From: Massalongia carnosa
Taxonomy: Eukaryota
Length of the DNA stretch: 64,000 bases
Assembly (NCBI GenBank): GCA_965645245.1
Contig: OZ287080.1
Location: forward strand, 868,001-932,000
Direction: 5' to 3'
Shown here: positions 6,441 through 43,500 of the stretch, piece after piece
Position numbering within the stretch: position 1 is the first letter of the stretch
Layout: each line of letters starts with the position of its first letter
The notes under the pieces: generated by a model
The model's input: the letters and a program-made list of their open reading frames with translations, nothing else
The model's database searches: none
What the model was told of the DNA's origin: nothing
Translations under genes and position numbers: made by a program

Positions 6441-6506
6441 GATGACTGGAATTACTACGTTGAAAGTTCATACAAACGACAATCAAAAGGATATCATTAA
6501 TCGTAC

Positions 6507-17936: not shown

Positions 17937-19322
17937 ATGTTCAATCCGGTACTCCCTAGGACTCGACGAATTATATCGAGAGCCTCCCCGGGAACACCCC
18001 CGAGTTCTCCTCAAAACCCTCCCCAAATGGAATCTCCGGGGCTCTCGTCAGTAGGACTTATAGAAAAATCGCCTGTACTTGACGAGCCTATGGATCAATC
18101 ACATGAATATTCGTCCGCCCCGACTACGCCGACCCCAAAAGCAACCAAATTCCCATCTGGACAATTTACTACCAATCTACCCATGCTATCGTTAAATTCT
18201 AATATAGAATTAAGCCCGCCCATCAAACGTAACAAACGAAAAACATTCGACGAACGAGTAGAGGAAAGCCAAGAAGCAATCAATCGAGCACAATCGATTG
18301 GATTACTCAAAACGGCTAAAACCGCGTTATTGAAGTCATTTGTCTTAGATCAAAATCCAGAAACAGCAATAGTCATTGATAATGTCAATTCCTTATTGAC
18401 AAAAAAATCAATTAATATCAAAACAACACTAGACATGATGAATTGGAAATTGGACAAGGTAATTGATCAGACTAGTAATCGAACCTCAGAAACAACGCGA
18501 AAATCGACTCGGGTTCAACAAGTCAATATGACTGAAAATCCAAATAAAGTCGTCAACACGAACGCACGAAAGGAAACCGCCGGGGTTACGAGTACAAAGG
18601 TCAATAACACGCCTCCATCCTGGAGTCAAATGCTTGGAAAAGCAACTGCGAATTCCGAAAATTGGACCACTGTTTCCAGATCGAAAAATTCGAGTCAAAC
18701 CTCGAACAAACTCGACAAAACCGACGAATTAAATGCAATCAAACTCAGACGACTGATAATTACACCAAAAATTCAAATCGGCGATATCGACTCATTGAAA
18801 CTTCGAGATCAAATCAACGCGCAATTCAGCAACGCGAAGTTAGATATCGTAATCAACACGGTCGAAAAATCGAAAACCGGTCAGAATATCGTTCTCACTA
18901 CTAGTTCGAAAAACACTGCTGCAGAATTGTTGGGTAACAAATCTATATGGGAACATATGTTCGATGCACAAAGATTTCGAAAAGACGAATCCTGGTTTAA
19001 AGTGATCGCACATGGAGTAAATATTGCAACGTTTGATCAAAATATGCAATTTTTGCAAAATGAAATCCAGAAATTCAACCTTAACATGGAATTGTGCGAT
19101 TTACCCAGATGGCTAGCGCGAGATCGCGAAAATAAAGTCAATTCTTCGGTCGTTTTGACTTTTAACGATCGAAATCAGGCCTTAAACGCGTTAAAAGGCG
19201 TAAATATCGCGGGAAAACACTGTGACACGGAAATATTTACTTCCGTTCGTCCGAATACACAATGTATTAATTGTCAAAAATTCGGACACAAGCATTATCA
19301 GTGTCGAAACAAATCAAAATGA
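17937..19322 (+). CDS. LINE ORF1 (gag-like), 461 aa, ending at a premature TGA after the first CCHC knuckle (full frame would end at 19511)
   Basis: CINCQKFGHKHYQC; homologous to the ORF1 at 38906. Confidence 0.8.
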   Translation: MFNPVLPRTRRIISRASPGTPPSSPQNPPQMESPGLSSVGLIEKSPVLDEPMDQSHEYSSAPTTPTPKATKFPSGQFTTNLPMLSLNSNIELSPPIKRNKRKTFDERVEESQEAINRAQSIGLLKTAKTALLKSFVLDQNPETAIVIDNVNSLLTKKSINIKTTLDMMNWKLDKVIDQTSNRTSETTRKSTRVQQVNMTENPNKVVNTNARKETAGVTSTKVNNTPPSWSQMLGKATANSENWTTVSRSKNSSQTSNKLDKTDELNAIKLRRLIITPKIQIGDIDSLKLRDQINAQFSNAKLDIVINTVEKSKTGQNIVLTTSSKNTAAELLGNKSIWEHMFDAQRFRKDESWFKVIAHGVNIATFDQNMQFLQNEIQKFNLNMELCDLPRWLARDRENKVNSSVVLTFNDRNQALNALKGVNIAGKHCDTEIFTSVRPNTQCINCQKFGHKHYQCRNKSK

Positions 19323-19510
19323 AATATTTGTGCACAAAATCATGAAACACGTAATCATGAATGCATAACATGCAAATCGAAAACTGCGTGTGCACACGTT
19401 GTTGTGAAATGTGCAAACTGCAATAAAAATCATCAGTCAAATGATGAACATTGTGAAATGTTTACTGCATTAAATCCACGAAAATCGGCTGACGAATTAT
19501 CCGCCTCATA

Positions 19511-21958: not shown

Positions 21959-22003
21959 TCATGCATTATTCCTATTTCGGACTATGGCTCAGAAATTTGG
22001 TAT

Positions 22004-25000
22004 TATTCGTTGCGGCCCAATCAAAAGCTGATTTGACGATAATTTCGATTTCTTTGCAATTCTGTGTAGCAGTTTTATTTTCGACATATATTGCAACATC
22101 GTCTATAAAGCTAGGTGAATGAGCGTTGAATTTCATTCGTATTTTCGGAAATAAGTAACGAATATAAATCAGAAATAGAATTGGCGAAATTGGTGAACCT
22201 TGTGGAATTCCAGATTCGATATAGTACGTTTTGCTTTTGTGTTCATCGAATATAAAATTGATCGATCGTTTTGTCATAAAATGCTTGACCCATTGAATAA
22301 CTATGCGATATAAATGCAGCTTTTTCATGACATTTAGCAATTGATTAATCGAAACAAAGTCAAATGCTCCTTTGACATCGAGTAATAGACATGATAAAAC
22401 GTTTTTGTTTCGGTTTGCGATTTCGATATCATGAACGACGTTCATTACCGCATCGATTGCAGAATGATTTTTCCGTCCGCCCATTTGTTCGGTATCTAAC
22501 AAGCTCGAATTTTCGCCGAGGTAGGCTAGTCGATTCCCAACTATTTTCTCCGCAATTTTACTAAGACAATTCAGTAAGGTAATAATTCGATATGATTTTG
22601 GCAGCGAGTAGTCTGGTTTATTATGTTTTTTTAAAACAGCACCGAGTCCTGTTCGCCAACATAACGGGTGATAACCGATTTGTATAAACTTAGAATAAAT
22701 AGTAAAAAACACGTATTTCAATGGTTTAAACGCTTTTTGAATTATAGTGAAATTGATTGCATCAGGTCCACATGATTTCTTTGGATTAAACAACCTAATC
22801 GCATTTTGCAATTCATTTTCGGTTAAATTCGGCCAATTGTTGTCATTTTCGCTGTCTTGATTCGTTAAATCTTCAATATTATCATCCGTGAACGGGTTTA
22901 TTTTGTACATTGCTGATACAAACGCATCGCATTTGTGATCGAATTGAACATTTAACTTATTTTCATATTGAATAGGTGGTATTTTTTCGAACATGCGCGG
23001 TTTAGTGTATTTATAAGCTGTAAATACGTCTTTATTCGCTGCGTTTTCGAGGAAAGCCAACCAAGTTTGCTGTTTCGCTTTTCGAATTGCATGAAAGTAC
23101 TCGATTCGACTATGTCTAAATGTTTGATGACTAAAATAGGACGGATTATTCTTCCATTCTCGACGATGTCTACACATGATTTTTCGAAGTCTGGATAAAT
23201 CTTGCGACCACCAATTTTTCGATTTTGCGCATATTTTTGTCTTCGGAATAAACATTTCAGCCGCGTTTTTGATAACGTTTTGCAAATATAACGCTGATTC
23301 ATCAAATTGATAATTGTTCAATAGACTTTGTATTTGGGACTCGTAGTTTACTGCATTTTCGTCTAGAAACTTAGCGAATTTATCCCAATCGGCTTTATTG
23401 CAGTTGTATTTATTCGATAATGCGGTTGCGTGAGACGTCAAGTTCTTGAAAGACGCGATAAGTTCAAATCGAATAACTTCATGATCTGAACCCGTGACTG
23501 CGTTTTCATCGATTGACCAATTTGTAATTGCGTTTTCGATTTTGGAATTTGCAAATGTTAAATCAATAATAGATGAAGAGTTTCCTGAATGAGCAAAAAA
23601 TGTATATAGATCAGGCGTATTTATCAAACTACATTTGTTTAATTTTAACCATTTGACTAGATTTTCTGATCGAATTGCATTTTGAATCTTCGAATTCCAC
23701 CAGCTATGATGTGCATTGAAATCTCCACATATGACAAATTGATCAGTTGATAGGTTGATATTTAACTAAAAGTCGATCGATTGTATATGTTTCTCGATCG
23801 TTTAGACTTTTTTCATTGTAAAGGTTAAAGATCTGCACTTTTCGAACTTCATCAATTGTAATTTCGATAATTTGCAGATCAGTATCGTTTATAAGATCCG
23901 TTCTAGGCGTGCATTGTAATTTTGGATTGCATTTTGTAACGAATATAGCTACTCTCGGCCGATAAGTCGCTATTTTCGGCATAATACATGTGAATGACGG
24001 ATGGGAAATTGTGTTTTGATCTCGCGTCCATGGTTCCTGAAATAAAACAATATCAACACGATTTAATACTGCATATTCCAGACACGAAATCATTGCATTC
24101 GTTGACTTTGCACAACTATGTTGAATAAATTTGACGTTTTGTGTATTTTCGATATTTGTCAACGAATGTTGTCCCGCCATTAACCAAGCATTAATTCATC
24201 ATTCGATTTTCTAGGATTTAGCTAGAAAAACATGTCGCAACCTATATCGTTCGATTGATGATTTTTGTTGCAATTGACGCATTTCAGAATTGCATGCAGG
24301 CATGCGATTTTAGACTTGCATGTTGTGCATTCATGATTATGCGTTTCATGACTTTGTGCGCATATATTGCATTTTGCCGGACTTTTGCATTGATAATGCT
24401 TATGTCCAAATTTCTGACAATTAATACATTGCGTGTTTGGACGAACGGAAGCAAATATTTCCGTGTCACAATGTCTACCCGCGATATTCACGCCTCTTAA
24501 CGCGTTTGACGCTTGATTTTGATTATTGAAAGTCATAACTAATGACGACGTGACTTTGTTTTGACGATCCCGAGCAAGCCATCTTGGTAAATCGCATAGT
24601 TGCATATTCGAATTGTATTTTTCGATTTCGGTTTGCAAATATTGCATGTTATTATCGAATAACGAGATATTTACTCCGTGTGCTATGACTTTAAACCAGG
24701 ATTCGTCTTTTCGAATTCTTTGTGATTCGAAAATGTGTTCCCATGAAGATTTATTTTTCAACAATTCTTCGGCATTGTTGTCTGGGCTAGTGGTGAGAAG
24801 GATATTCTGACCGGTTTTGGACTTTTCAACAGTATTGACGATGATGTTTAAATTTGCGTTATTTAATAGCGCGTTAATTTGATCACGCAACTTCATAGAG
24901 TCGATTTGAGCGTCAGGATTTTTCGGTGAAACCACGAGTCGTCTGGCCTTGATTGCATCAAATCGATCGACTTTGTTCGAATTATGATTCGAACTTTTCC

Positions 25001-26662
25001 TTTGAATAGTAGTACAATTTTCGGAGTTTTCGGTTGCTTTTCCAAGCATTTGACTCCATGTACCGATTGTGCTAACATTGTTACTAGAGACCCCGGTGGC
25101 TCCTTTACGAATGGTCTGATTTTCGATAATTGAATTTTCGTTCAATTTAACAACAGGTTTTTGGATTTTTGGACCATTCTGTAGTGGAGTCGTTTGTTAT
25201 TGTGACGTTTTTGAGGAAAGATGACTAGTTTGATCAAGTACTATGCCCATTTTATAGTTAATCATATCTAAGGATGTTTGTAAATTGATTGATTTTTTCG
25301 AAATCAACGAATTAACGTTGTCAATTACGATAGCCGTTTGTGGATTTTGGTCCAGTACAAATGATTGCAATAATGCTTTTTTGGCCGACTTTAGAAGCTC
25401 AATTGAATTTGCCCGATTGATCGCTTCTTGGCTATCTCTCGAATGTTCGTCAATGTGCGTCTTTTATTTCGTTTGATTGGTGGGCTTGATCCAATGTTTA
25501 AGTTCAATGAAGGCATCGGCAAGATAGTTGAAAATGGACCCGATGGGAATTTCGTTGCCTTTGGTGTCGGTGTTGACGGGGATGATGCATATTCGCGAGT
25601 TTGATCCATAGGTTCAAGACGGGGAGAGCTCCCTATCAACGCCACCGGAGATGGTCCGGGGGAGTGTCGGGGGGGGGCCGGGTAAGGGGTCGATAGGGGG
25701 GCGGGACCGACTGGGGGTGGTGTCCTTGGTATATTCCGGCGATTCATTACCGAGTTAAATATGGATTTATAAATAAATCGATGTTGCCTTTGCTATATCC
25801 CCTTTATCGCCACCAAATAATTTATTCTCACGTTCCCCGGACGTAAGAGTCAGAATAGAGAATTTTTACGCCGATTTACTGGTCTAAAGACTCTTGCTTT
25901 CCAAACCCTATTTATTTGACAATAACAAGTCAAATAAATCCTAGTCGAGTTAAAATAGACCGTTCCTCGCTTAGGCAATAGATCTTATTTAACTCTTTAC
26001 CTTGACACTACGATAAATAGAATATAATAAGAATTTTACGATCGAACAGAAAATTTTTTTTTTTAAAAAATGTTTTTGATCCAGAAATAAAAATCAAGTA
26101 CAATGAGTGAGAGGAGACTTCCTATTCTGGTTAGCCTGAAACAGGGCCTTTGGTTTAACCTAATTTCAGACGTTTTTCCCCTTCATTTCAGCAGATTGTT
26201 GGTCGGCAGTTCAACGAAAATCGAAAAAACACAAAATGGAATAGTGTATACGGTACCGGTAACCTTAAATTTCAAATGAACACCAAGAAGTTTTGTTGTC
26301 TCGAGAACAGGTTGTACAGTTACGCGACAGTGATGTTATTTTGTAGATAATTTTTGTGATAATAGATGAGATCTATGCGACAATTAAACCGAAGAAATAT
26401 CGAAAATCGAGCGATGTTTGAGGTTGTTGTTGGTGTTTTTGTGTTTTGTAGATTTTTTGGACGCGCTTTTTGGTGAAGGGGCGGAAAGACCGCGAGGAAA
26501 ACTCTGCAGGAGCAGTGGAAGAGCTCTCCTGTACCCAATTCTGATGGGTTTTAGCTTCTGGTAGGCTCAAATGAATGAGAAGAATGAGGAGAATAAGTTG
26601 GGAAAGTTTCAGTATATCAAAACATAGGGTACCGATGTTTTGGGGGCTGGCTTTTTGCTGAT
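22004..26662 (-). mobile_element. C-type LINE with complete 5' end, disrupted ORF1/ORF2, 3' part missing
   Basis: ORF1 pieces 25391-25747 and 24222-25145; ORF2 pieces 23743-24180 and 21972-23627; 5'UTR extends to ~26662. Confidence 0.95.
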
Positions 26663-26834
26663 AGTCGGAATGAGGCGTGCGTGGGGACGACCTAGGCGGA
26701 ACTGGTCGAGGCGGTGAGGATTGCGGAAAGGTTTTCCCAAAGGCCTCACCGTGGAGCGACCGACAAATATAGATTTGCTCCTATCTTTTCACATCAAAAC
26801 AATGCTAATTTAACGCGTTCACACGCGTCGCAGA

Positions 26835-26996
26835 TACGACGCGGAATGGGTTGGGTTTTGCCACAGTTGGGTAACCCAAGTTACTAATAATAGTATACTT
26901 TTACGGGTTTAATTCTATATATAGTATACTAGTATACTAAATATAGTTGTTTGAGTTGGGTTTTCAAAGTCAGAACCCAACCCATTCCGCAGCGTA
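26835..26996. mobile_element. 162-bp MITE, hAT-type
   Basis: 8-bp TSD gtcgcaga (26827-26834, 26997-27004); ~26-bp TIRs tacg(ac/ct)gcggaatgggttgggtt(t/c)tg; empty site in the paralogous copy at ~29416. Confidence 0.9.
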
Positions 26997-27333
26997 GTCG
27001 CAGACGTACGTACGGAAGAGGCTACGAAGGCCAACCGCCGGGGGGTAGAATGCGCGCGTCCCTGCATCATGCTTCTAAGGGTTCAAGTCCCTTCATGTTG
27101 TCATCAGCTGGAAGAAGATGTGGACTAAAGGAGCCGGATCATCCCCCACCCGGGCACAATCGACACGCGTTCTAGCTCCTGAGCGTTTAAGTCTCCCCAT
27201 GCAGTCATCAGCTGGGATCAACAGAACGCGTAAAGGCACCGGGGCGAATGCTGTCACCTCAAGAAAACTCCATCTCGGAGCAGATTTACAATATCCCATT
27301 TAATAGGCCCGGCATGTTAAATAAAATCGAGGA

Positions 27334-27490
27334 AAACATAGAGTCACAAAACACATAGTCATCAATCACATGTTGTACAAAGCGCACAGCCACAAAGCAC
27401 ATAGTCACAAACATACAGTCACAAACACACAGTCAAAAAACACACAGTCATAAAACACACAGTCACAAAAAACACAGTCATAAATCAATA
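27334..27490. repeat. CA-rich tandem repeat (~14-15 bp unit acacacagtcacaa, ~10 units); paralogue at ~29753-29927
   Basis: Directly visible; unit number differs between the two copies. Confidence 0.9.
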
Positions 27491-28245
27491 ATACGTCCCT
27501 GTAAAGGGAGTTCTGCGGGGGCTCGTTAAGACAGATCTGTACCCCGTTAATATCGGCGTACATATTTTTAGAGGTTCAAGTCCTTTCTAGCAGTTATCAG
27601 CTGAAAATGATGCATTTTGACACGGGCATGGTGAGGATTTGACACGGGTAGACCTCGATGGATCACAAAACGAATGAAAAGAGTTCAGCGGAAGTTCGTT
27701 AATATTGTTCTCGAAGACCTCGTTAATAAGATTTTCATAGACCTCGTTAACAACGTTCAGTCATACTCTTGAAGGTTCAAGTCCTTTCATGCAGTCATCG
27801 GCTGAGAGCTAAAGACGTACGACACGGGTCAGCTATGTCTGTCACACGGGTCTCCTTCGTCTACAACACGGAGCCCTCCGGCTGAAAGAAATAAAACATA
27901 TAGACACATAGTGTAGGGTCACACCCTACACGATACAAGAGATTTAGGTTATGAAAACCATCCGATTGATGGCTACCGTGAGCAGCACGTCCCGAACCGG
28001 ATTCGTACCGGGGATGGTGGAGGCAACCTAGTCATCAAATAGGACACCCTTGGGACAAGAAGAGGGCAATATACGAGGAACCCGTTAATTGATAACAGTC
28101 TAGGCCCTGAGCTACTAGACGAATTTCAAACGAGCACCCCTCCGAGTTGTCCTCGACTCGTTTTGGTTAGTAGGGACGGAAAATCGATACTATACTTCCT
28201 GGTCAGGAGCATAGTGGTCAAAATCCCTGCGATACATGGTCGGTT

Positions 28246-28289
28246 TTTTATTTTATTTTATTTATTCATTAAATGTATTCAACCTAAGG
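28246..28289 (-). mobile_element. LINE 3' tail, probably belonging to the minus-strand LINE body at 52973-56239
   Basis: ttttattttattttatttattcattaaatgtattcaacctaagg; the TSD acatggtcggtt flanks 28246 and 56239. Confidence 0.75.
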
Positions 28290-29185
28290 GCTTATGGAAC
28301 AACAAATATGCCGAATGGAACGAAGACGAAAAACAAACAAATAAACGGCATCCTAGTCAGCTTATTCGTGTTTTGCACTCCGTTTCGGTCATAGTTCACA
28401 AAACTGATGAATTCGAACAATCAAATAACTTCATTAAACCATGGAAGTCGTCGTGTAAAATCGAGTTTCAAATAGAAAACTCAAAAGAAACAGCAAAATC
28501 AAGTTATTATTCGACTTTGTCCAAAATTCAATTTATTAATTCCGAAATCACGAATATTACTTTATACGGATGGATCAAAATTAGAATTTGCAACTTCTGC
28601 GGTCACATTTGCACCAATTATGCGAAAATGGAACAATTTTATCGATAATTTCGATCACCTTATCGAAAAAGATTGCCTTATCCAACATTATACAATTTCG
28701 GAAAGCTGGAAATTGAGCAAACAGTCAAGCATTAAAAATTCTGAACTTCATGCGATTTTACAAGCAGTCAAATGGGTATATAAGTTAACGAACGAGAATA
28801 TATTATCGAATTTAGAAAAACCAATATGGATTTTTTCCGATAGTTTGAATGTGATAAACGAAATTCAATATTTAACAAATCATATTTATACGAAGCAAAT
28901 TCGAAAGATTGCAAAATGTTTATTCGAAAACAACTATCAGATAATTCTGCAATGGATTCCTAGTCATTCGAAAATTATCGAAAATGAAATTGCAGACAAA
29001 GCGGCGAAAGCAGGACACACAGTCAAATCATAGCGGAGTCCTCGGCGATCAAATTTGACTACTTGAAAAGTCAAATTCATCAAAATACGCTAAACACATG
29101 GACGAATCAATAGCAACAATGCAGGTCAAAAGGCAAACATAACGAGAAATTTGATATGCAACCTGGCAAATCGAGCTTGTATCAT
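28290..29185 (+). pseudogene. LINE RNase H-region fragment (same variant as 2076-3169)
   Basis: LTNENILSNLEK, IFSDS and NEIAD; frameshifts present. Confidence 0.9.
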
Positions 29186-31065
29186 CACATCACTAAAGCA
29201 CCACCGCATCATTTAAATTTCTATCACATTATTATATATCGGTCCTCCTCCTTCTACACCATCGGTCCTCCTCCTTCTACACCATCGGTCCTCCTCCTAC
29301 ACCATCGGTCCTCACCACGGAGACACCAAAGGCCTCACCGTGGAGCGACCGACAAACATAGATTTGCTCCTATCTTTTCGTATTAAAACAATGCTAATTT
29401 AACGCGTTCACACGCGTCGCAGACGTAGGTACGGAAAAGGATACGAAGGGCAACCGCCGGGGGGTAGAATGCGCGCGTCCCTGCACCATGCTTCTAAGGG
29501 TTCAAGTCCCTTCATGTTGTCATCAGCTGGAAGAAGATGTGGACCAAAGGAGCCGCATCATCCCCCACCCGGGCACAATCGACACGCGTTCTAGCTCCTG
29601 AGAGTTCAAGTCTCCCCATGCAGTCATCAGCTGGGATCAACAGAACGCGTAAAGGCACCGGGGCGAATGCTGTCACCTCAAGAAAACTCCATCTCGGAGC
29701 AGAATAACAATATCCCATTTAATAGGCCCGGCCTGTTCAATAAAATCGAGGAAAACACACAGTCACAAAACACATAGTCATCAATCACACGTTGTACAAA
29801 GCACACAGTCACAAAGCACATAGTCATAAACATACAGTCACAAATACACAGTCAAAAAACACACAGTCACAAACCACACAGTCACAATACACACAGTCAC
29901 AAAAAACACAGTCACAAATCAATAACACGTCCCTGTGAATGGGGTTCTGCGGGGGCTCGTTAAGACAGATCTGCACCCCGTTAATATCGGCGTACATATT
30001 TTTAGAGGTTCAAGTCCTTTCAAGCAGTCATCAGTTGAAAATGATGCATTTTGACACGGGCATGGTGAGGATTTGACACGGGTAGACCTCGATGGATCAC
30101 AAAACGAATGAAAAGAGTTCAGCGGAAATTCGTTAATATTGTTCTCGAAGACCTCGTTAATAAGATTTTCATAGACCTCGTTAACAACGATCAGTCATAC
30201 TCTTAAAGGTTCAAGTCCTTTCATGCAGTCATCGGCTGAGAGCTAAAGACGTACGACACGGGTCAGCTATGTCTGTCACACGGGTCTCCTTCGTCTACAA
30301 CACGGAGCCCTCCGGCTGAAAGAAATAAAACATATAGACACATAGTGTAGGGTCACACCCTACACGATACAAGGGATTTGGGTTATGAAAACCATCCGAT
30401 TGATGGCTACCGTGAGCAACACGGCCCGAACCAGAGTCGTACCGGGGATGGTGGAGGCAACCTAGTCATCAAATAGGACACCCTTGGGACAAGAAGAGGG
30501 CAATATACGAGGAACCCATTAATTGATAACAGTCTAGGCCCTGAGCTAATAGACGAATTTTAAACGAGCACCCCTCCGGGTTGTCCTAGACTCGTTTTGG
30601 TTAGTAGGGACGGAAAATCGATACTATACTGCCTGGTCAGGAGCATAGTGGTCGAAATCCCTGCGAGACATGGTCGGTTCATAAACGGGAGAACTTTATG
30701 AATAACGCGAAGTGGGCGTAAAAAACCCGTGAGGCGTGGTATGCAATGGGGGCCACCGTACGGAGACCGTCTGCATAGCCCGAGAGGACAGTATGCGCAT
30801 GTCGGTGTATATAGAGCAGGGAATGTCTATCTCGCTCGTAACGAAACCCAGTCGGTTCGCCGGCGCATGGGCTACGGCTAGACTCGCCCTTGATATATGC
30901 TTAAGGAGTAATCTGGGTTTGACCTGGGCGAAAGGGACGTCGTTCACACCAATCGTAGAATTCATCAATAATCTTGGGCCGTAAAACTCACCAGTGAGAT
31001 GAACGAAAACTCGGATAGAGATTTCACGAAGGAGATGTCAACTCTATTTTATCATTCTTAGCCCG
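29186..31065 (+). mobile_element. Non-coding structured repeat, copy 2 (uninterrupted, ~1.9 kb), fused at its 3' end to C-type LINE ORF1
   Basis: Paralogue of 26737-28245 plus 56240-56637; four T-loop motifs; ends ...attcttagcccg. Confidence 0.8.
29238..29313. repeat. Tandem repeat atcggtcctcctccttctacacc (~23 bp, about 3.5 units)
   Basis: Directly visible; the third unit is shortened. Confidence 0.9.
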
Positions 31066-34000
31066 ACACTCAACTGGACCATCTCGGGTGGCGTTGATAG
31101 GGAGCTCTCCCCGTCTTGAACCTATGGATCAAACTCGCGAATATGCATCAGCCCCGTCAACACCGACACCAAAGGGAACGAAATTCCCATCGGGTCCATT
31201 TTCCACTACCTTGCCGATGCCTTCATTGAACTTAAACATTGGATCAAGCTCACCAATCAAACGAAATAAAAGATGCACATTTGACGAACATTCGAGAGAT
31301 AGCCAAGAAGCGATCAATCGGTCAAATTCAATTGAGCTTCTAAAGTCGGCCAAAAAAGCATTATTGCAATCATTTGTACTCGACCAAAATCCACAAACGG
31401 CTATAGTAATTGACAACGTTAATTCGTTGATTTCTAAAAAATCAATCAATTTACAAACATCCTTAGATATGCTTAACTATAAAATAGGCATAGTACTTGA
31501 TCAAACTAGTCATCTTTCCTCCAAAACGTCACAACAACAAACGACTCCACTACAGAACGGTACAAAAATCAAAAAACCTGTTGTTAAATTGAATGAAAAT
31601 TCAATTATCGAAAATCAGACCATTCGCAAAGGAGCCACCGTGGTCTCTGGTAACAATGTTAGCATAACCGGTACATGGAGTCAAATGCTTGGAAAAGCAA
31701 CCGAAAACTCCGAAAATTGGACTATTATTCAAAGGAAAAGTTCGAATCATAATTCAAACAAAGTCGATCGATTTGATGAAATCAAGGCCAGACGACGCGT
31801 GATTTCACCGAAAAATCCTGACGCTCAAATCGACTCTATGAAGTTGCGTGATCAAATTAACGCGCTATTAAATAACGCAAATTTAAACATCATCGTCAAT
31901 ACTGTTGAAAAGTCCAAAACCGGTCAGAATATCCTTCCCACCACTAGCCCTGACAACAATGCCGAAGAATTGTTGAAAAATAAATCTTCATGGGAACACA
32001 TTTTCGAATCACAAAGAATTCGAAAAGACGAATCCTGGTTTAAAGTCATAGCACACTGAATAAATATCTTGTTATTCTATAATAACATGCAATATTTGCA
32101 AAGCGAGATCGAAAAATACAATTCGAATATGCAACTATATGATTTACCAAGATGGCTTGCTCGGGATCGTCAAAACAAAGTCACGTCGTCGGTAGTTTTG
32201 ACTTTCAATAATCAAAATCAAGCGTCAAACGCGTTAAGAGGCGTAAATATCGCGGGTAGACATTGTAACACGGAAATATTTGCTTCCGTTCGTCCAACAC
32301 GCAATGTATTAATTGTCAGAAATTTGGAAATAAGCATTATCAATGCAAAAGTCCGGCAAAATGCAATATATGCGCACAAAGTCATGAAACGCATAATCAT
32401 GAATGCACAACATGCAAGTCTAAAATCGCATGCGCACATGCAATTCTGAAATGCGTCAATTGCAACAAAAATCATCAATCGAACGATATAGGTTGCGAAA
32501 TGATTTTCTCGCTAAATCCTAGAAAATCGAATGATGAATTAATGCTTGGTTAATGGCGGGACAACATTCGTTGACAAATATCGAAAATACACAAAATGTC
32601 AAATTTATTCAACATAATTGTGCAAAGTCAACGAATGCAATGATTTCGTGTCTGGAATATGCAGTATTATATCGTGTTGATATTGTTTTATTTCAGGAAC
32701 CATGGACGCGAGATCAAAGAACAATTTCCCATCCGTCATTCACATGTATTATGCCGAAAATAGCGACTTATCGGCCGAGAGTAGCTATATTCGTTACATA
32801 ATGCAATCCAAAATTAGAATGCACGCCTAGAACCGATCTTATTAACGATACTGATCTGCAAATTATCGAAATTACAATTGACGAAGTTCGAAAAGTGCAG
32901 ATCTTTAACCTTTACAATGAAAAAAAGTCCAAACGATCGAGGAACATATACAATCGATCAACTTTTAGTTAAATATCAACCTATATCAACTGATCAATTT
33001 GTCATATGTGGAGATTTCAATGCACATCATAGCTGGTGGAATTCGAAGATTCAAAATGCAAGTCGATCAGAAAATCAAATCAAATGGTTAAAATTAAACA
33101 AATGTAGTTTGATAAATACGCATTATCTATATACATTTTTTTCTCATTCAGGAAACTCTTCATCTATTATTGATTTAACATTTGCAAATTCTAAAATCGA
33201 AAACGCAATTAAAAATTGGTCAATCGATGAAAACGCAGTCACGGGTTCAGATCATGAAGTTATTCGATTTGAACTTATCGCGTCTTTCAAGAACTTGACG
33301 TCACACGCAACCGCATTATCGAATAAATACAACTGCAATAAAGCCGATTGGGATAAATTCGCGAAGTTTCTAGACGAAAATGCAATAAACTACGAGTCCC
33401 AAATACAAAGCCTATTGAACAATTATCAATTTGATAAATCAGCGTTATATTTGCAAAACGTTATCAAAAACGCGGCTGAAATCTTTATTCCGAAGAAAAA
33501 AATATGCGCAAAATCGAAAAATTGGTGGTCGCAAGATTTAACCGGACTTCGAAAAATCATGTGGAGACATCGTCGAGAATGGAAGAATAATCCGTCCTAT
33601 TTTAGTCATCAAACATTTAGACATAGTCGAATCGAGTACTTTCATGCAATTCGAAAAGCGAAACAACAAACTTGGTTGGCTTTCCTCGAAAACGCAGTGA
33701 ATAGAGACGTATTTACAGCTTATAAATACACTAAACCGCGCATGTTCGAAAAAATACCACCTATTCAATATGAAAATAAGTTAAACGTTCAATTCGATCA
33801 AAAATGCGTTGCGTTTGTTTCAGCAATGTACACAAAAAACCCGTTCACGGACGATAATATTGAAGATTTCTCGTATCAAGACAGCGAAAATGACAAAAAT
33901 TGGCCGAATTTAACCGAAAATGAATTGCAAAATGCGATTAGTTTGTTAAATCTAAAGAAATCATGTGGACCTGATGCAATCAATTTCACAATAATTCAAA

Positions 34001-35044
34001 AATCGTTTCAACAATTGAAAAACGTGTTTTTTAATATTTATTCTATATTTATTCAATTCGGTTATCACCCGTTATGTTGGCGAACAGGACTCGGTGCTGT
34101 TTTAAAAAAACATAATAAACCAGACTACTCGCTGCCAAAATCATATCGAATTATTACCTTACTGAATTATCTTGGTAAAATTATGGAGAAAATAGTTGCT
34201 AATCGACTAGCCTACCTCGGCGAAAATTCGAGCTTGTTAGATACCGAACAAATGGGCGGACGCAAAAATCATTCTGGAATCGATACGGTAATAAACGTCG
34301 TTCATGATATCGAAATCGCAAAGCGAAACAAAAACGTTTTATCATGTCTATTAATCGATGTCAAAGGAGCATTTGACTTTGTTTCGATTAATCAATTACT
34401 AAATTTCATGAAAAAGCTGCATTTATCTCGCATAGTTATTCAATAGGTCAAGCATTTTATGACAAAACGATCGATCAATTTGATATTCGATGAACACAAA
34501 AGCAAAACGTACTATATCGAATCTGGAATTCCACAAGGTTCACCAATTTCGCCAATTCTATTTTTGATTTATATTCGTTACTTATTTCCGAAAATAAGAA
34601 TGAAATTCAATGCTCATTCACCTAGCTTTATAGACGATGTTGGAATATATGTCGAAAATAAAACTGCCAAACAGAATTGCAAAGAAATCGAAATTATCGT
34701 CAAAACAGCTTTTGATTGGGCCGCATCGAATAATGTCAAATTTGATAACGATAAATCTGAGTTGATTCACTTCGAAAAGTCATGAAATGCATCAAAAGAC
34801 AAAGTGCAATTACCAAACGGGACAATACTAGAACCGAAAAATTCTGTCAAATGGTTAGGAGTCTGCTTAGACCGAAAACTAAATTACAAAAAACACATCG
34901 AAACGCGAATTGCTTCTGCAAATAGATCGTTTTTCGCAATTCAAAATTTGATGAAGTCTGAATGGGGACTAAACCCAACTGCATGCAGACAGCTCTATTT
35001 GTCATGCATTATTCCTATTTCGGACTATGGCTCAGAAATCTGGT
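31062..35044 (+). mobile_element. C-type LINE, 5' segment (ORF1 lacking its first ~30 codons, APE, RT); resumes at 51206
   Basis: ORFs at 31088-35208, TAATG at 32551; 13-bp TSD tcagaaatctggt at 35032-35044 and 51206-51218. Confidence 0.92.
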
Positions 35045-38000
35045 TTTTTTTTATATTTATTTATTTATTTTATTTATTTATTAAGTGTATTCAACCTAAG
35101 GTTATGACACTAAACTATTTTAAGATATGGTTTTATTTTACAAATAAATCAACCCTTTATAACCCAACTATCTATCGTCAATATTGCCCCGTTTTTACTC
35201 CGTGTTAGTAACAACCTTTAGTTATCGAAATATCGATTTTACAATATGTTTTTATAAAGCTCGTAAATATTCCAGCATAAATCATTTCTAATTTTACTGT
35301 TCGATCTCTCCCCAACCTCCCGTTTCGATATTTTCATCATCGAGCAGACCTAGCATCCATTTTCTAGTCGCGATTTTGTTATCAACAATAAATTTAATCA
35401 AAATATTATTTCCGATCCTAGTATTAAAAAACATTTTTAAAGTAATTGTGGTATCGATATTTTGTTTTATGTTTAGGATTTCATTTGAATAATGTATGCA
35501 ATTCATCAATAAGTGTTCTGGCGTTTGACGTTCGTTGCAGCGCCCTGTGCATTTTGACAAATTATAATCTTTCAATCGGTGCAGATATGATCGAAAATAA
35601 CCGTGTCCGAATTTCATTTGCATAATAGTCGCAAATATTAATTTCGAACAATTATTCGACAGATAATAAAAACTCGATTTGCCCGGCTGCATTTCGAATT
35701 TCTCATAGTATTTGCCTTTTGACTTGCATTGATGCCATTGATTCGCCCATGTGGCTAACATATTTCGATTTATTTAACCCTTTACATAATCAATTTTTAT
35801 TATCGAAGACTCGACTAGGATTCGACTATGTCCCGCTTTTGCTGCTTTATCTGCAATTTCATTTTCGACGATTTTCGAATGACTAGGAATCCATTGTAGA
35901 ACCACCTGATAATAGTTTCCCAATAAGCATTTCGAGAATTTTCGAATTTGTTTTGCGTAAGTATGATTTGTCAAGTTCTTAATTTCGTTTATCGCTTTTA
36001 TGCTATCGGAAAAAATCCAAATCGTTTTTTCCAAATTGAAGAGAATATTCGCAATTGTCAATTTGTATGCCCATTTTATTGCTTGTAGTATCGCATACAG
36101 TTCAGCGTTTTTAACGCTTGACTGTTTGTTTAATTTCCAGCTTTTCGAAATAGTTTGATGTTTGAGGAGACAATCTTTCTCGATAAAACGATTGAAGTTA
36201 TCGGTGAAATTGTTCCAATTTCGCATAATTGGTGCAAATGTGACAGCGGAAGTTGAAAACTCGGTTTTTGATCAATCGGTATAGAGTAACATTCGCGATT
36301 TATCGGCGTTTATTGATTGGATTTGTGATAAAGTCGAATAATAACTTGACTTTGCTGTTTCTTTTGATCTTTCGATTTGGAACTTGATTTTACAAGACGG
36401 CTTCCATGGTTTGATGAAATTATTTACTGATTCGAATTCATCAGTTTTGTGAACTACATCCGAAACGGAATGAAGAATACGGATAAGCTGACTAGGATGA
36501 AGTTTACTCGATTTTTTCTCGTCTTCGTTCCATTCAGCATATCTGTTGTTCCATAAACTAGTGTCAAAACCGATGTTTTCGAATTTCACAGAATAGGTAC
36601 TGGGAATTCTTTGACAAATAGGATTATTTTCGGCAATCTTCAATAATTGAATTGCGTATTTTTGATTTTTCATCAACAATCGTAGCTTGGCTGGTAAAAT
36701 ATGCGATTCAATTTCCATCGCCTGAACAAGCGTTGTTTTGAATGTGCCTAAAATCTTTCGAATCATTCGATTTTGCATATTCTGAAATAGCTTTTCATAT
36801 GTCTTTTGACCGTTATACCAGATTTCTGAGCCATAGTCCGAAATAGGAATAATACACGACAGATAGAGCTGTCTGTATGCAGTTGGCTTTAGTCCCTATT
36901 CAGACTTCATCAAATTTTGAATTGCGAAAAACGATTGATTTGCAGAAGCAATTCGCGTTTCGACGTGTTTTTTAAAATTTAGTTTTCGGTCTAAGCAGAC
37001 TCCTAACCATTTGACAGAATTTTCGGTTCTAGTATTGTCCCGTTTGGTAATTGCACTTTGTCTTTTGATGCATTTCTTGACTTTTCGAAGTGAATCAACT
37101 CAGATTTGTCGTCATCAAATTTGACATTATTCGATGCGGCCCAATCAAAAGCTGTTTTGACGATAATTTCGATTTCTTTGCAATTCTGTGTGGCAGTTTT
37201 ATTTTCAACATATATTACAACATCGTCTATAAAGTTAGGTGAATGAGCATTGAATTTCATTCGTATTTTCGGAAATAAGTAACGAATATAAATCAGAAAT
37301 AGAATTGGCGAAATAGGTGAACCTTGTGGAATTCCAGATTCGATATAGTACGTTTTGCTTTTGTGTTCATCGAATATCAAATTGATCGATCGTTTTGTCA
37401 TAAAATGCTTGACCCATTGAATAACTATGCGTGATAAATGCAGCTTTTTCATAACATTTAGCAATTGATTAATCGAAACAAAGTCAAATGCTCCTTTGAC
37501 ATCGAGTAATAGACATGATAAAACGTTTTTGTTTCGGTTTGCGATTTCGATATCATGAACGACGTTCATTACCGCATCGATTGCAGAATGATTTTTCCGT
37601 CCGCCCATTTGTTCGGTATCTAACAAGGTCGAATTTTCGCCGAGGTAGGCTAGTCGATTAGCAACTATTTTCTCCGCAATTTTACCAAGACAATTCAGTA
37701 AGGTACTAATTCGATATGAATTTGGCAGCGAGTAGTCTGGTTTATTAGGTTTTTTTAAAACAGCACCGAGTCGTGTTCGCCAACATAACGGGTGATAACC
37801 GATTTGTATAAACTTAGAATAAATAGTAAAAAACACGTTTTTCAATTGTTGAAACGATTTTTGAATTATTGTGAAATTGATTGCATCAGGTCCACATGAT
37901 TTCTTTGGATTAAACAAACTAATCGCATTTTGCAATTCATTTTCGGTTAAATTCGGCCAATTGTTGTCATTTTCGCTGTCTTGATTCGTTAAATAGGATC

Positions 38001-38905
38001 GGAAAAGGCCTTTAAACACTGAACAACAAGAAACACAAGTACCGCAACTTTTGATACACTATAACTTTAACAGTCAATTGAGCCTCTATTTCTCAGTCAT
38101 TTGCGCTCCTCCAGAGTTAAAACGCTCTCAGATTGAGTGTAGGAGAGCTCTAGCAAAGCTCCAGCAGAGTTTTTCTGCTGGTCGCACGCGACCGACGTGA
38201 TAAAGCGCGCTCTAGAAGTTGGAAAAAACAACAAATACCAACAACCTCACCAAAAATCGCTCTTTTTTCTTGTTTTCTTCTGTTCTGTTGTCGCATGACC
38301 TTCAATTATTACTATAAAAATTATCTACAAAAATTATCTACTCTCGCGGGACTGTACAACAACTGTCGCGACGTCAGAGTCTTCTAAAGTTCATTCCTCA
38401 TTTAAGGTTACGGGAACTTCCGCAAGCACAAATTTTCATAGCATATTTCACGTATAATTTTTGCACATTCCATTTTCGGCTTTATAGATCTTCGTTGAAC
38501 GGCCGGTCAACAGATCACTGAAAAGAAGGGGAAAAACGTCTGGAATAGGATTATACGAAAGGTCCTGTTTCAGATTAATCAGAATAGGAAGTCTCCTATT
38601 GTCTTACATTGCATTAAAATTTATCTTTATTGAAAAAAGCAAAAAAAAAACTTTCATTATTTTCACCTATTGTAGTGTCTGGTAAAGGGTTAAATAAGAC
38701 TTACTGCCTTAGCGAGGAACGGTCTATTTTAACCCGATTAGGATTTATTTGACGCGTTATAGTCAAATAAATAGGGATAGGAAAGAAAGAGTCATTTGAC
38801 CAGTAAACAAACAGGTGTAAATTCTATTCTGACTAGTACGTCCGGGGAAAGTCAGAATAAATTATTTGGTGGCGATAAAAGGGATATTGCAAAGGCAAAA
38901 ACACT

Positions 38906-40564
38906 ATGCTCAATCGAAGATTTAACCCGATAGGTCATAGACCAAATCGATTGATACCAACAACTCCTCCCCCAGGCCCCCCTCCACAACATCTATGGGT
39001 CCCCCCGAGTACTCCCCCGTGCCCCCCCCGAACCGACTCCCCCACGCCATCTTCGGTAGCGATAATTGGGAGCAACCCCCTAACCGTAGAATCCACGGAG
39101 GCCATGGACCAAACGCGAGAATTTTCGTCCGCACCGTCCACACCCACCCCAAAAACGAAACCTTTTGTCGCGCCATCTGGTGAATTCAGTACCAATCTGC
39201 CCATGCCATCATTGAATTCTGATATTCGACTGAGTCCACCAATTAAACGCAACAAAAGACGAACATTTGACGAACATTCGATTGAGAGTCAAGAAGTCAT
39301 CAATCGATCAAAATCGATTCAACTATTGAATACGGCAAAAAATGCATTATTAGAGTCATTCGTAATAGATCAAAACCCCGAAACGGCTATGGTCATCGAT
39401 CACGTCAATTCTCTACTGGCAAAGAAATCGATCAAGCCAAAAGCAACGTTAGAAATGATTGATTGGAAATTGAATAGGGTGCTAGAACAAACTAGCCAAA
39501 TTCCAGAAACAAAGAGACAATCGGTGCATCCTATACAGACAAAATCGAAGGGAAATTCAAATGGAAATTCGAATTTGACTCAAAACGTCAACCCAGAAAT
39601 TCGGAGCGAAACCGCCGGAGTCCCAGGGCCGCAGGTCAACGATACAGCTAGAACATGGAGCCAAATGCTCGGAAAAGCGACTGTCAATTCCGAAAATTGG
39701 ACTACCGTTCCTCGATCCAAAAAAACAAACAAGAACAACAACAATAATTCGAATGCGAACAAATTCGATAATACTGACGATTTCAAGGCGATCAAATCTC
39801 GACGATTGATAATCACACCGAAAGCTCAAATCGGCGATATCGATTCACTGTTGCTTCGAAACCAAATCAATTCGCTTTTTAAACACGCGAAATTGACTAT
39901 CGTTGTTAACACGGTCGAAAAGTCCAAAACGGGTCAAAACATCGTTCTGACTACTAGTCCTGATAACACTGCTGAAGATTTATTGAACAATAAATCAATA
40001 TGGGAGCATTTATTCGACCCACGAACAGTTCGAAAGGACGAATCGTGGTTCAAAGTCGTCGCACACGGTGTAAATATTGCAACATTTGATGAAAATATGC
40101 AATATTTGCAAGACGAAATTCAAAAGTTCAATTCGAACATGCAATTATGCGATGTTCCCAGATGGCTAGCACGTGATCGTCATAACAAGATCAAATCATC
40201 CGTTGTTTTGACATTCAATGATCGAAATATGGCCTTGAACGCGTTAAAAGGAGTCAATATCGCGGGCCGACATTGTGACACGGAAATATTTACCTCCGTT
40301 CGTCCAAACACACAATGCATTAATTGTCAAAAATTTGGACACAAGCATTATCAATGCAAAAGTCAAGCGAAATGCAGCATATGTGCGCAAAACCATGAAA
40401 CACGCAATCATGAATGCACAACATGCAAGTCAAAAATTGCTTGTGCACACGCCGTTGTCAAATGCGCGAATTGCAACAAGAATCATCAGTCCAATGATGA
40501 AAATTGTGAAATGGTTATATCGTTAAATGTTCGAAAATCGACTGACGAATTAGCCGCTTTGTAA
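38906..40564 (+). CDS. LINE ORF1 gag-like nucleic-acid-binding protein, 552 aa
   Basis: Pro-rich N-terminus; C-terminal CINCQKFGHKHYQC, CSICAQNH and CANCNKNH knuckles. Confidence 0.95.
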   Translation: MLNRRFNPIGHRPNRLIPTTPPPGPPPQHLWVPPSTPPCPPRTDSPTPSSVAIIGSNPLTVESTEAMDQTREFSSAPSTPTPKTKPFVAPSGEFSTNLPMPSLNSDIRLSPPIKRNKRRTFDEHSIESQEVINRSKSIQLLNTAKNALLESFVIDQNPETAMVIDHVNSLLAKKSIKPKATLEMIDWKLNRVLEQTSQIPETKRQSVHPIQTKSKGNSNGNSNLTQNVNPEIRSETAGVPGPQVNDTARTWSQMLGKATVNSENWTTVPRSKKTNKNNNNNSNANKFDNTDDFKAIKSRRLIITPKAQIGDIDSLLLRNQINSLFKHAKLTIVVNTVEKSKTGQNIVLTTSPDNTAEDLLNNKSIWEHLFDPRTVRKDESWFKVVAHGVNIATFDENMQYLQDEIQKFNSNMQLCDVPRWLARDRHNKIKSSVVLTFNDRNMALNALKGVNIAGRHCDTEIFTSVRPNTQCINCQKFGHKHYQCKSQAKCSICAQNHETRNHECTTCKSKIACAHAVVKCANCNKNHQSNDENCEMVISLNVRKSTDELAAL

Positions 40565-43500
40565 TGGCAGGACAGCATTCGTTGACAAACATCGAAAATA
40601 CACAAAATGTTAAATTTATTCAACATAATTGTGCAAAGTCAACGAATGCAATGATATCGTGTTTGGAATATGCTTTATCAAATCAAATTGATATTGTTTT
40701 GTTTCAGGAACCATGGACACGAGATCAAAAAACAATATCACATCCGTCATTTACATGTATTATGCCAAAAATAGCGACTTATCGCTCGAGAGTAGCTATA
40801 TTTGTCACAAATGGCAATTCCAAACTGCAATTCACGCCTAGAACGGATCTTATTGACGATTCCGATATGCAAATTATTGAAATTACAATTGATGAAGTTC
40901 GAAAAGTGCAGATTTTCAATATTTATAACGAAAAAAGTCAAAGTGATCGAGAAACATACACGATCGATCGACTTTTAATCCAATTACAACCAAAATCAAC
41001 TGATCAATTCGTCATCTGTGGAGATTTCAATGCACATCATAACTGGTGGAATTCGAAAATTCAACAAGCAATTCGATCAGAAAATCTTGTCAAATGGTTG
41101 AAATTAAACAGGTGTAGCTTGATAAACACACCTGACTTATGTACATACTATGCCCATTCTGGAAGTTCTTCATCTGTTATTGATTTAACTTTTGCAAATT
41201 CTAAAATCGAAAATGCAATTACAAATTGGTCAATCGATGAAAACGCAGTCACAGGTTCTGATCATGAAGTCATCCGATTTGAACTAATCGCATCTTTCAA
41301 AAACTTGACGTCACATGCAACCGCATTATCGAATAAATACAATTGCAATAAAGCTGATTGGAATAAATTCGCGAAGTATCTAGACGAAAATTCAACCATC
41401 TACGAATCACAAGTTCAAAGTTTATTGAATAATCATCAATTCGACGAATCAGCGATATATTTGCAAAACGTTATCAAAAACGCGGCTGAAATGTTTATTC
41501 CGAAAACGAAAATTTGTGCAAAATCGAAAAATTGGTGGTCGCATGATTTAACTGAACTTCGAAAAACCATGTGCAGACATCGTCGAGAATGGAAGAATTA
41601 TCCGTCCGATTTTAGTCATCGGACGTTTAAACATAGTCGAATCGAGTATTTTCATGCAATTCGAAAAGCAAAACAACAAACATGGTTGACTTTTCTTGAA
41701 AATGCAGCAAATAAAGATGTATTTACCGCGTATAAATACACTAAACCGCGAATATTCGAAAAAATACCGCCGATTCTACATGAAAACAAGCTAAATGTTC
41801 AGTTTGATGACAAATGCGATGCATTTGTGTCAGCAATGTATACAAAAAACCCATTTATTGACGATAATGAGGAAGATTTATCAAATCAAGACAGCGTAAA
41901 TGATGATAATTGGCCAGATTTGACCGAAAACGAGTTGAAAAATGCGATTAGTTTATTTAATCCGAAGAAAGCATGTGGACCTGATGCAATCAATTTTACA
42001 ATTGTTCAAAAATCGTTTCAATCGTTGAAAAACGTGTTTTTCATGATTTATTCGAAATTCATTCGAATCGGTTATCACCCGTTATGCTGGCGGACAGGAC
42101 TCGGTGCAGTTCTGAAAAAACCTAATAAATCGGACTATTCGTTTCCAAAATCATATCGAATTATCACATTATTAAATTGTCTTGGTAAAATTGCTGAGAA
42201 AATCGTTGCAAATCGACTAGCCTACTTCGGCGAAAATTCGAATTTACTCGATATCGAACAGATGGGCGGACGCAAAAATCATTCTGCAATTGACGCAGTA
42301 ATGAACGTTGTTCATGATATTGAAATTGCAAATAGAAATAAAAACGTTTTATCATGTTTATTACTCGATGTCAAAGGCGCATTTGACTTTGTCTCGATTA
42401 ATCAACTGCTAAATGTTATGAAAAAACTGAAATTATCTCGCATAATAATTCAATGGGTCAAGCATTTCATGACAAAGCGATCGATCAATTTGATATTTGA
42501 TGAAAATTTAAGCAAAACATATTATGTCGAATCAGGAATTCCACAAGGCTCACCAATCTCGCCTATTCTATTTCTGATTTACATTCGTCACTTGTTTCCG
42601 AAAATACGAATGAAATTCAATGCACATTCTCCCAGTTTTATTGACGATGTTGCAATATATGTCGAAAATAAAACTGCAAAACAGAATTGCAAAGAAATCG
42701 AAATCATAGTCAAAACGGCCTTTGATTGGGCCGCATCGAATAATGTCAAATTTGATGACGATAAATCTGAGCTGATTCACTTCGAAAAGACAAGAAATGT
42801 ATCGAAAGACAAATTGGAATTACCAAACGGGACAGTACTAGAACCGAAAAATGTAGTCAAATGGTTGGGCGTCTGGTTAGACCGAAAACTAAATTTCAAA
42901 AAACACGTCGAAATGCGGATCTCTTCTGCGAATCGATCGTTTTTTGCAATTCAGAATTTGATGAAATCCGAATGGGGTCTGAAACCGACCGCATGCAGAC
43001 AGCTCTATATGTCATGCATTATTCCTATTTCGGACTACGGCTCAGAAATTTGGTATAATGGTCAAAAGAAATATGAAAAACTATTTCAGAACCTACAAAA
43101 TCAAATGATTCGAAAGATTTTAGGAACTTTCAAAACCACACCTATTCAGGCTATGGAAATTGAATCACATGTTTTACCAGTTAAACTTCGATTATTAATG
43201 AAAAATCAAAAATACGCAATTCGATTATTGAAGATTGCCGAAAATAACCCTATTTGTCAAAGAATTCCAAATACATATTCGATAAAATTCGAAAATATCG
43301 GTTTTGACACAAGTTTATGGAACAACAAATATGCCGAATGGAACGAAGACGAAAAACAAACAAATAAACGACATCCTAGTCAGCTTATTCGCGTTCTTCA
43401 TTCCGTTTCCGATATAGTTCACAAAACTGATGAATTTGAACAATCAAATCATTTTATTAAACCTTGGAAATCGCCTTGCAAAATCAAATTTCAAATCGAA

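Follow-up and report, generated by a model that had tools for sequence, protein, structure and literature searches.

The best-described fusions between a long non-coding RNA (lncRNA) and a fungal retrotransposon are the MINE elements of Magnaporthe, in which the 1.1-kb non-coding WEIRD RNA is fused to 5'-truncated copies of MGL, a long interspersed nuclear element (LINE), at 28 sites with the consensus GCC*A/U (PMC2104539). WEIRD is always full length (1,113 nt), MINE target-site duplications (TSDs) measure 10-20 bp (19/31), a tripartite form exists, no solo WEIRD is known, and the authors report no microhomology (PMC2104539). In fungi, lncRNA-LINE chimeras are well documented solely for this system, and no other fungal case was found in the main texts of the literature searched. 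Here, a comparable arrangement is described from the genome of Massalongia carnosa, in a stretch of 64,000 nucleotides of assembly GCA_965645245.1 (contig OZ287080.1, positions 868,001 to 932,000, forward strand). This whole stretch is referred to as the window, and coordinates are positions within it. The window holds two full copies, E1 and E2, of a non-coding element of about 1.9 kb, termed E, both of which run directly into a LINE in sense orientation. These E-LINE units are probably chimeric retrocopies of the MINE/WEIRD kind, which arose when reverse transcription, guided by microhomology, switched templates to the 3' end of an RNA lacking a poly(A) tail.

Junctions Between the Element and Two LINE Subfamilies

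The window consists almost wholly of nested LINE copies belonging to at least three subfamilies (the reference type, "B" and "C") that are 70-87% identical to one another. A BLAST search with 29101-31200 located E in three places, namely 26737-26834 together with 26997-28245 (95-96% identity), 29326-31065 itself, and 56240-56637 (95.5%). The first and third places are the two halves of E1, which was split by an antisense LINE that later gained 28 kb of further insertions. The 12-bp TSD acatggtcggtt, present at 28234 and 56240, brackets this antisense LINE; just after the E1 piece ending at 28245 comes a LINE 3' tail in reverse complement, and the piece starting at 56240 abuts an antisense LINE at its 5'-truncated end. 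As E2 is uninterrupted across the same 12-mer, the window contains two full copies of E and not one copy and a stub. The other copy that a preliminary description of this DNA had seen joined to a B-type LINE is real, but 56240-56637 is only the 3' 0.39 kb of a full copy whose 5' 1.5 kb lies at 26737-28245. The parts of the two units, and the native LINE copies with which they were compared, are as follows.

29186-31065, forward strand: E2, the contiguous copy of E, of which 29326-31065 is the part common with E1
29186-29325, forward strand: 5' variable region of E2, with 3.4 copies of a 23-bp tandem repeat
31062-35044, forward strand: first part of the C-type LINE fused to E2, starting after native ORF1 codon 31 and cut at 35044 by an antisense C-type LINE
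51206-52976, forward strand: remainder of the C-type LINE linked to E2, ending in an A-rich 3' tail, with the 13-bp TSD tcagaaatctggt at 35032 and 51206
26737-28245, forward strand: 5' part of E1, equivalent to E2 29326-30679, ending in the first copy of the TSD acatggtcggtt (28234-28245)
56240-56637, forward strand: 3' part of E1, equivalent to E2 30668-31065, whose first 12 nt are the second TSD copy and which ends ...CTAGCCCG, followed by B-type LINE ORF1
56632-62980, forward strand: B-type LINE fused to E1, starting 92 codons into ORF1, with its tail at 62980
25533-26657, reverse strand: native C-type 5' region, a comparator in which the equivalent of the E2 junction is 25671 and the upstream sequence is unrelated to E
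47494-47723, reverse strand: second native C-type comparator, with the junction equivalent at 47632 and the ATG of ORF1 at 47723

Both copies of E end at the same bases, ...TTAGCC(CG), and pass directly into the first open reading frame (ORF1) of a sense LINE, at the positions given in the preliminary description. The E2 junction reads ...ctctattttatcattcTTAGCCCG followed by acactc, at 31062-31065; here the last unambiguous base of E is 31061, and 31062-31065 (CCCG) are common to E and the LINE. The E1 junction reads ...ctctattttatcattcCTAGCCCG followed by cctatt, at 56632-56637. When the end of E (...TAGCCCG) is compared with the native LINE sequences (AAGCCCGCC in B and CCCCCCCGAC in C), the microhomology is as long as had been claimed or longer.

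From exactly base 31062 onward, the LINE after E2 shares 96.2% and 96.0% identity with two native C-type copies, which carry a different, mutually shared upstream sequence and in which the ATG of ORF1 lies 31 codons before the junction point. The LINE after E1 is 97.0% identical to the native B-type copy at 17049-22006, and the junction corresponds to position 18214 of that copy, 92 codons into ORF1. The two partner LINEs do belong to different subfamilies, being 72% identical to each other, and since each is 96-97% identical to native copies with 5' regions of their own, the two fusions are independent. The missing 5' parts of the LINEs are not found to the left of E in the window, and both downstream LINEs (2/2) reach a 3' tail once nested insertions are removed, in agreement with the earlier account. 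In the case of LINE B, the sequence consists of 56632-60528 and about 61333-62980, between which a nested, 5'-truncated LINE fragment (60529-61332) is flanked by the imperfect TSD tga(a/g)tcacatg. The reading frame of the E2-C unit is open from 31019, with its first ATG at 31124 (MDQ), as was also noted before. An insertion of E into a LINE was considered and is ruled out, because the 5' parts of the LINEs do not lie on its left.

Junctions in Other Sequencing Runs

To the two junctions of the window can be added those in contigs of four other sequencing runs (X1, X4, X5 and X7) placed on 29000-31600. E is multi-copy elsewhere: 4,385 X1 contigs were placed on a 2.6-kb stretch, with as many as 43 different contigs overlapping a single position of E. 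In an X4 contig of 3,220 nt, E extends to 31063 and is followed by sense C-type ORF2 at reference position 42169 (0-3 mismatches in 10 LINE copies), a site that is preceded by CC in native C copies. Position 31061 is connected to 31109, in C-type ORF1 47 nt further in, both in an X7 contig of 8,164 nt and in one X1 contig; three bases are shared at this joint, and the native sequence there reads CTCTCCCC. In an X5 contig, E is left at 31064 and the next sequence, AGTCATCACTCC..., is not LINE-like; this continuation matched nothing in the window, whether 3 or 9 mismatches in 30 were allowed, and its frame-2 peptide occurs there in no frame. The X5 partner is the sole candidate for a LINE-free source locus. 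The 3' end of E thus falls at 31061 (X7/X1), 31063 (X4), 31064 (X5) or 31061-31065 (E1 and E2), while the LINE sites lie in C-type ORF1 at codon 31 and 47 nt further in, in B-type ORF1 at codon 92, and in C-type ORF2 at reference position 42169. A fixed end of E joined to variable LINE sites had been predicted, and all four identifiable LINE partners are in sense orientation.

The runs X1-X8, which cover five organisms and a "lichen metagenome" from six studies, contain 5-53% of the sampled words of E, and three of them contain exactly 0.37. This pattern suggests that the same fungus, or the same variant of E, is present in samples labelled as other organisms.

All four LINE sites are preceded by a C-run (CC, CCC, CCC or AGCCC). 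The baseline in three native LINE sequences is low, with 3.0-3.6% of positions following CC, 0.6-0.9% following CCC, and 0-0.06% following AGCCC. Such a distribution is consistent with a switch of templates at the level of complementary DNA (cDNA) or RNA. E would be the DNA copy of a free, non-coding RNA of at least 1.9 kb with the 3' end ...UUAGCC(C), and this RNA is taken to be non-polyadenylated because there are no A-runs at the joins. During target-primed reverse transcription, the LINE reverse transcriptase (apurinic/apyrimidinic endonuclease-reverse transcriptase-RNase H, Tad/I-like) would copy the LINE RNA from its 3' tail and stall just past a copied C-run. The GG(G) end of the nascent cDNA could then pair with the terminal CC(C) of the E RNA, and synthesis would proceed along E. 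The expected product is E followed by a 5'-truncated sense LINE and its tail, or in other words a chimeric retrocopy like MINE/WEIRD or U6/L1. The preliminary description had proposed that a structured RNA with a fixed 3' end meets the LINE reverse transcriptase through C-run microhomology; apart from the word "structured," to which we return below, this proposal is supported.

The same anatomy, with a fixed 3' end of the 5' partner and variable sense LINE fragments, is predicted if E RNA, bearing a 2',3'-cyclic phosphate after endonucleolytic cleavage, were ligated by an RtcB-type ligase to LINE RNA fragments with a 5'-OH and the product then retrotransposed. This mechanism has been published for U6/L1 (PMC6789731). 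However, ligation needs no overlap, yet four of four junctions have C-run microhomology of 2 to 5 or more nt that is rare in the LINE, and it is very unlikely that the E-LINE units arose in this way.

The variety of LINE sites also bears on the idea that E is an exchangeable 5' untranslated region (UTR) or promoter module of a LINE lineage, in which E-LINE units transcribed from E amplify as families and recombination with other LINE RNAs or DNAs varies their junctions ("5' switching"). E is placed where a 5' UTR would be, the ORF1 frame of the E2-C unit is open to an internal ATG, and the joint of 31061 to 31109 occurs in runs of two organisms, as expected of a propagated or inherited chimera. 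Replacement of the 5' UTR in L1 is a further case of 5' switching. Moreover, 5' UTR cycling has been described for plant RTE LINEs (bioRxiv 10.1101/2022.11.04.512097). Recombination would nevertheless be expected at homologous LINE positions, and not at one nucleotide of E combined with non-homologous sites that range from ORF1 to ORF2. The X4 chimera is without ORF1 and half of ORF2, and therefore represents no functional lineage. In addition, the partner LINEs are as close to the copies with native 5' ends (96-97%) as those copies are to each other. Nor is E similar to any LINE UTR: sensitive blastn and nhmmer searches found no match between E and the 5' and 3' UTRs of the resident LINEs, and E is not the 5' UTR of a resident subfamily, as native copies carry other upstream sequence with no homology to it. 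On this evidence, a 5' UTR module is an unlikely identity for E.

Extent and Composition of the Element

Once rebuilt, E1 is collinear with E2. The 1,725 positions that can be aligned are 96.0% identical, without marked variation from region to region (94-98.5%), and the copies differ by only two indels, one of which is the 8-bp TSD of an insert found in E1 only. This 162-bp insert (26835-26996) resembles a miniature inverted-repeat transposable element (MITE), with terminal inverted repeats (TIRs) of about 20 bp (tacgRYgcggaatgggttggg) and the 8-bp TSD gtcgcaga at 26827 and 26997, for which E2 is the empty site. The length of the TSD we take to suggest a hAT-type origin.

The GC content of E is 47.7%, compared with 36% in the LINE. 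The claim that E is non-coding holds, as E1 and E2 each have a longest stop-free frame of 113 aa, where 200 shuffles average 110, and a Pfam search of five frames gave no match better than an E-value of 0.037. It is likewise correct that E has no TIR, tail or TSD of its own at the boundaries searched. No telomerase-template-like CCCTAA or TTAGGG is present within E. The terminus of E had no exact-word match in metagenome and viral contigs, and its internal module had none in metagenome contigs.

While the 3' end of E is fixed, its 5' ends differ. Homology in E1 begins at 26737 (equivalent to 29326), and E2 is 140 bp longer, extending to 29186. The 139 bp at 29186-29325 also form part of the repeat family, other copies of which are preceded by further, different sequence, and in contigs of X5, X4 and X1 yet other sequence lies upstream of 29186-29238. 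Since the other copies are preceded by different sequence, E has no fixed 5' end; the truncated or variable 5' ends of its copies are what would be expected of cDNA. The constant 5' end of a full-length non-coding RNA copy, a trait of MINE sensu stricto, was not found among E1, E2 and the contigs of other runs. None of the upstream sequence in these contigs, that of X5 included, is present in the window, and two "unique" upstream pieces, together with the last 169 bp, have no meaningful similarity elsewhere in the window.

The 5' half of E is made of internal repeats: a 23-bp unit (3.4 copies), a 15-bp unit (11 copies), a 24-bp unit (2.3 copies), and a module of about 45 nt in four copies.

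29495-30240, forward strand: four modules of about 45 nt (...RRRGG-TTCAAGT-CCYYY-CATGCAGTCATCAGCTG), at about 29495, 29599, 30003 and 30204

Each module contains a T-arm/B-box-like hairpin with a 5-bp stem and a 7-nt loop, and the same four are present in E1 (27076-27810). The core hairpin GG-TTCAAGT-CC is paired in 92.5% of cells, with compensatory changes at 3/5 pairs, a result equalled by 5/500 shuffles; the support for pairing is modest because there are just four independent units. The GGTTCAAGTCC hairpins, four per copy of E, match the general form of the tRNA T-arm or of the B box of RNA polymerase III (Pol III) promoters, and CATGCAGTCATCAGCTG comes after each of them. Beyond these short hairpins, the "structured RNA" of the preliminary description is not supported, as three segments of E of 375-400 nt fold no better than shuffled sequences (z = +1.0, -0.8 and -1.15) and the antisense control behaves alike. 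Rfam gave no match to E at the gathering threshold, and up to an E-value of 10 only five sub-threshold matches at chance level, including mascRNA-menRNA at 8.8. ARAGORN found no tRNA in E, and its relaxed calls were no more frequent than in shuffles or in a LINE control. Of the features of a tRNA-derived, Pol III-transcribed short interspersed nuclear element (SINE), E has the B-box/T-arm-like hairpins alone, with no tail, TSD or similarity to a LINE 3' UTR. A Pol III product of 1.9 kb is also unlikely because of the internal T-runs, a judgment that combines the sequence with general knowledge.

Each of the four hairpins is followed by the motif AGUCAUCA(G)CU, which also starts the non-LINE continuation in X5. 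This continuation begins AGTCATCA, an 8-mer found after every internal hairpin module, although the observation was made post hoc. Thus placed, AGTCATCA may mark a processing site in a longer precursor, and processing of such a precursor would resemble the RNase P/Z-type 3' end formation in MALAT1/mascRNA. It is conceivable, though very improbable, that E is an abundant nuclear lncRNA with a non-polyadenylated 3' end, formed by cleavage of a longer modular precursor immediately before the AGUCAUCA(G)CU motif. The CCC-3' end of such an RNA would systematically trap the LINE reverse transcriptase where it meets C-runs, and E would then be either a LINE parasite or a host decoy.

Flanks and Target-Site Duplications

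The flanks of the two units are themselves derived from LINEs. To the left of E1 lies, at least in part, the 5' terminus of an antisense C-type LINE, and to its right, after LINE B, another LINE fragment. The antisense LINE that split E1 (L_as) and a fragment upstream of E2 (F) are arranged as follows.

28246-28291, reverse strand: 3' tail end of L_as
52977-56239, reverse strand: body of L_as, covering reference LINE positions from about 44480 to 41202 and truncated 5' at 56239
28292-29185, forward strand: F, a sense internal LINE fragment (reference 43315-44208) directly upstream of E2, with a 2-nt filler at the join

Past both LINE tails, the flank contains neither E sequence nor sequence of the X5 partner. 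That no E sequence comes after either tail speaks more for a template switch to the 3' end of an RNA than for insertion into a target. As a target of a site-specific LINE, E is ruled out, given that the flanks past the LINE tails are unrelated to it.

These flanks also bear on a broader proposal, in which E forms the end of a longer repeat that amplifies on its own, LINEs having been joined to that end at the DNA level, either at a preferred insertion or break site or by microhomology-mediated end joining of truncated cDNA. A fixed target end combined with variable LINE 5' truncation is, after all, also the 5'-junction pattern of site-specific LINEs, as in R2-type elements. The 5' side of E is longer in other copies, the X5 contig runs into sequence that is not LINE-like, and both E-LINE units are without TSDs. 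On the other hand, the LINEs of the window insert at many unrelated sites with clean, ordinary TSDs of 11-13 bp, the flanks past the two tails are unrelated to E and to the X5 partner, and the four identified partners are all in sense orientation. Taken together, joining at the DNA level is quite unlikely.

Several observations weigh against template switching as the origin of the units. The TSD predicted around E plus LINE is seen in neither unit (0/2), and no k-mer of 8-9 nt or more is shared at the boundaries; this is weak evidence, since nesting or rearrangement can hide TSDs. The block 28292-52976, made up of F, the 2-nt filler, E2 and LINE C, sits in a gap of L_as, of which about 290 bp are missing. 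This position suggests one insertion with a target-site deletion, and either F, E2 and LINE C form a tripartite chimera, or E2 and LINE C landed in F, as an old target, with a larger deletion. With no defined 5' end, E might itself terminate a larger unit. Loss of 47 bp between two C-runs may have produced the X7/X1 joint secondarily, in place of an independent switch. The X5 partner, one of the three external partners, has no match in the window, and so not every end of E is shown to meet a LINE. Finally, the contig census is partial, resting on 16/157 loose ends and 15/20 joints. With these points taken into account, the feature is real, and template switching, the core idea of the preliminary description, is judged with moderate confidence to be its best explanation.

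A separate observation concerns the 8,164-nt X7 contig: about 330 nt before E it carries a 36-nt LINE-like piece (compare 29023-29058 of the window), oriented as F is in the window. It may be a coincidence in a LINE-rich genome, or may hint at an F-E arrangement common to several copies.

Comparison With Described Systems

The E-LINE chimeras fall into a known category and do not constitute a new one. As in MINE, the 5' part of the chimera is the copy of a long non-coding RNA, which passes without a break into a sense LINE that is variably truncated at the 5' end and complete to the 3' end; many different chimerization sites are used, and the LINE sites are GC-rich (GCC*A/U in MINE, C-runs for E) (PMC2104539). 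The tripartite forms of MINE may parallel the arrangement of F, E2 and LINE C, and a solo copy of the RNA gene has been seen in neither system. The differences are that E has variable 5' ends, is at least 1.9 kb long and is modular, whereas WEIRD is constant at 1,113 nt, and that E-LINE units show TSDs in 0/2 cases, strong microhomology, at least two LINE subfamilies, and another LINE clade and host (PMC2104539). The likeness between E and WEIRD is one of anatomy.

Mammalian U6/L1-type chimeras and the 5' switching of plant LINEs are more distant relatives. A similar anatomy is seen in U6/L1 and other small-RNA/L1 retrocopies of mammals, in which the 5' partner is joined at its native 3' end to a 5'-truncated sense LINE by the LINE machinery (PMC4476161; PMC13174262; PMC6789731). 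Their partners are short, known nuclear RNAs, in contrast to E, which is long, multi-copy and without an Rfam family. In addition, the RNA-ligation route has been shown for U6, while the microhomology in E favours template jumping (PMC6789731). The 5' UTR switching of SolRTE in Nicotiana is alike in that an unrelated non-coding module replaces the LINE 5' end; however, the new 5' end of SolRTE defines a propagating subfamily with one junction, whereas the junctions of E differ and cut into ORF1 or ORF2 (bioRxiv 10.1101/2022.11.04.512097). Eg-R1/Egh24 of Blumeria, a SINE-like Pol II retroposon, is, like E, non-coding, high-copy and LINE-dependent, and resides in a LINE-rich fungal genome (bioRxiv 10.1101/242271). 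Eg-R1 is a different kind of element, as it measures about 670 bp and has its own TSDs, an AAUAAA signal and polyadenylation, none of which is found in E (bioRxiv 10.1101/242271).

The Surrounding LINE Landscape

The LINE at 37995-44817 is apparently intact. It encodes an ORF1 of 552 aa and, at 40564-44598, an ORF2 of 1,344 aa, the two overlapping by one base, and it is flanked by the perfect 11-bp TSD attcgttaaat. ORF2 contains the domains Exo_endo_phos, RVT_1 and RNase_H, corresponding to endonuclease, reverse transcriptase and RNase H in a Tad/I-like layout. A homologue search with ORF1 returned 21 database relatives, none of which has an informative name. The first 35 nt of the intact LINE are unlike the 5' ends of B and C and contain ggatcggaaaaggcct, which is similar to ggattgcggaaagg...aaaggcct at the 5' border of E1; this resemblance may be due to chance.

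Elsewhere in the window, the sense B-type LINE at 17049-22006 and an antisense C-type LINE at 21993-26657 meet tail to tail (21993-22006), each without its last 1.8-2 kb, an inverted junction for which simple nested insertion is no explanation. The 5' region of an antisense C-type LINE harbours, at 47981-50639, a nested 2.66-kb element whose terminal inverted repeats (cccgtttgcaaaatggtgtgcc...) measure about 150 bp. A longer related copy (3165-6658) contains an ORF at 3386-3910 with weak, sub-threshold, homeodomain-like helix-turn-helix matches, suggesting that the two are DNA transposons of the Tc1/mariner-like type.

Implications for LINE Evolution

The E-LINE units seem to represent a second, apparently multi-copy fungal system, in a different LINE clade and with clear C-run microhomology. 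Such a system would allow template jumping by a Tad/I-like reverse transcriptase to be read from natural copies, and would show how the 5' ends of LINEs can be replaced. Once formed, the chimeras might be transcribed from E, which could in this way come to serve as a promoter. For annotators, the units would be a warning that "composite" consensus sequences of this kind are real and not artefacts of assembly or clustering. Competition between E RNA and LINE RNA for the enzyme, should it occur, could influence the number of dead-on-arrival LINE copies in a genome that is largely built of LINEs. If, furthermore, E acted as a decoy, it would turn potentially full-length LINE cDNAs into 5'-truncated dead copies, occasionally with a new promoter.

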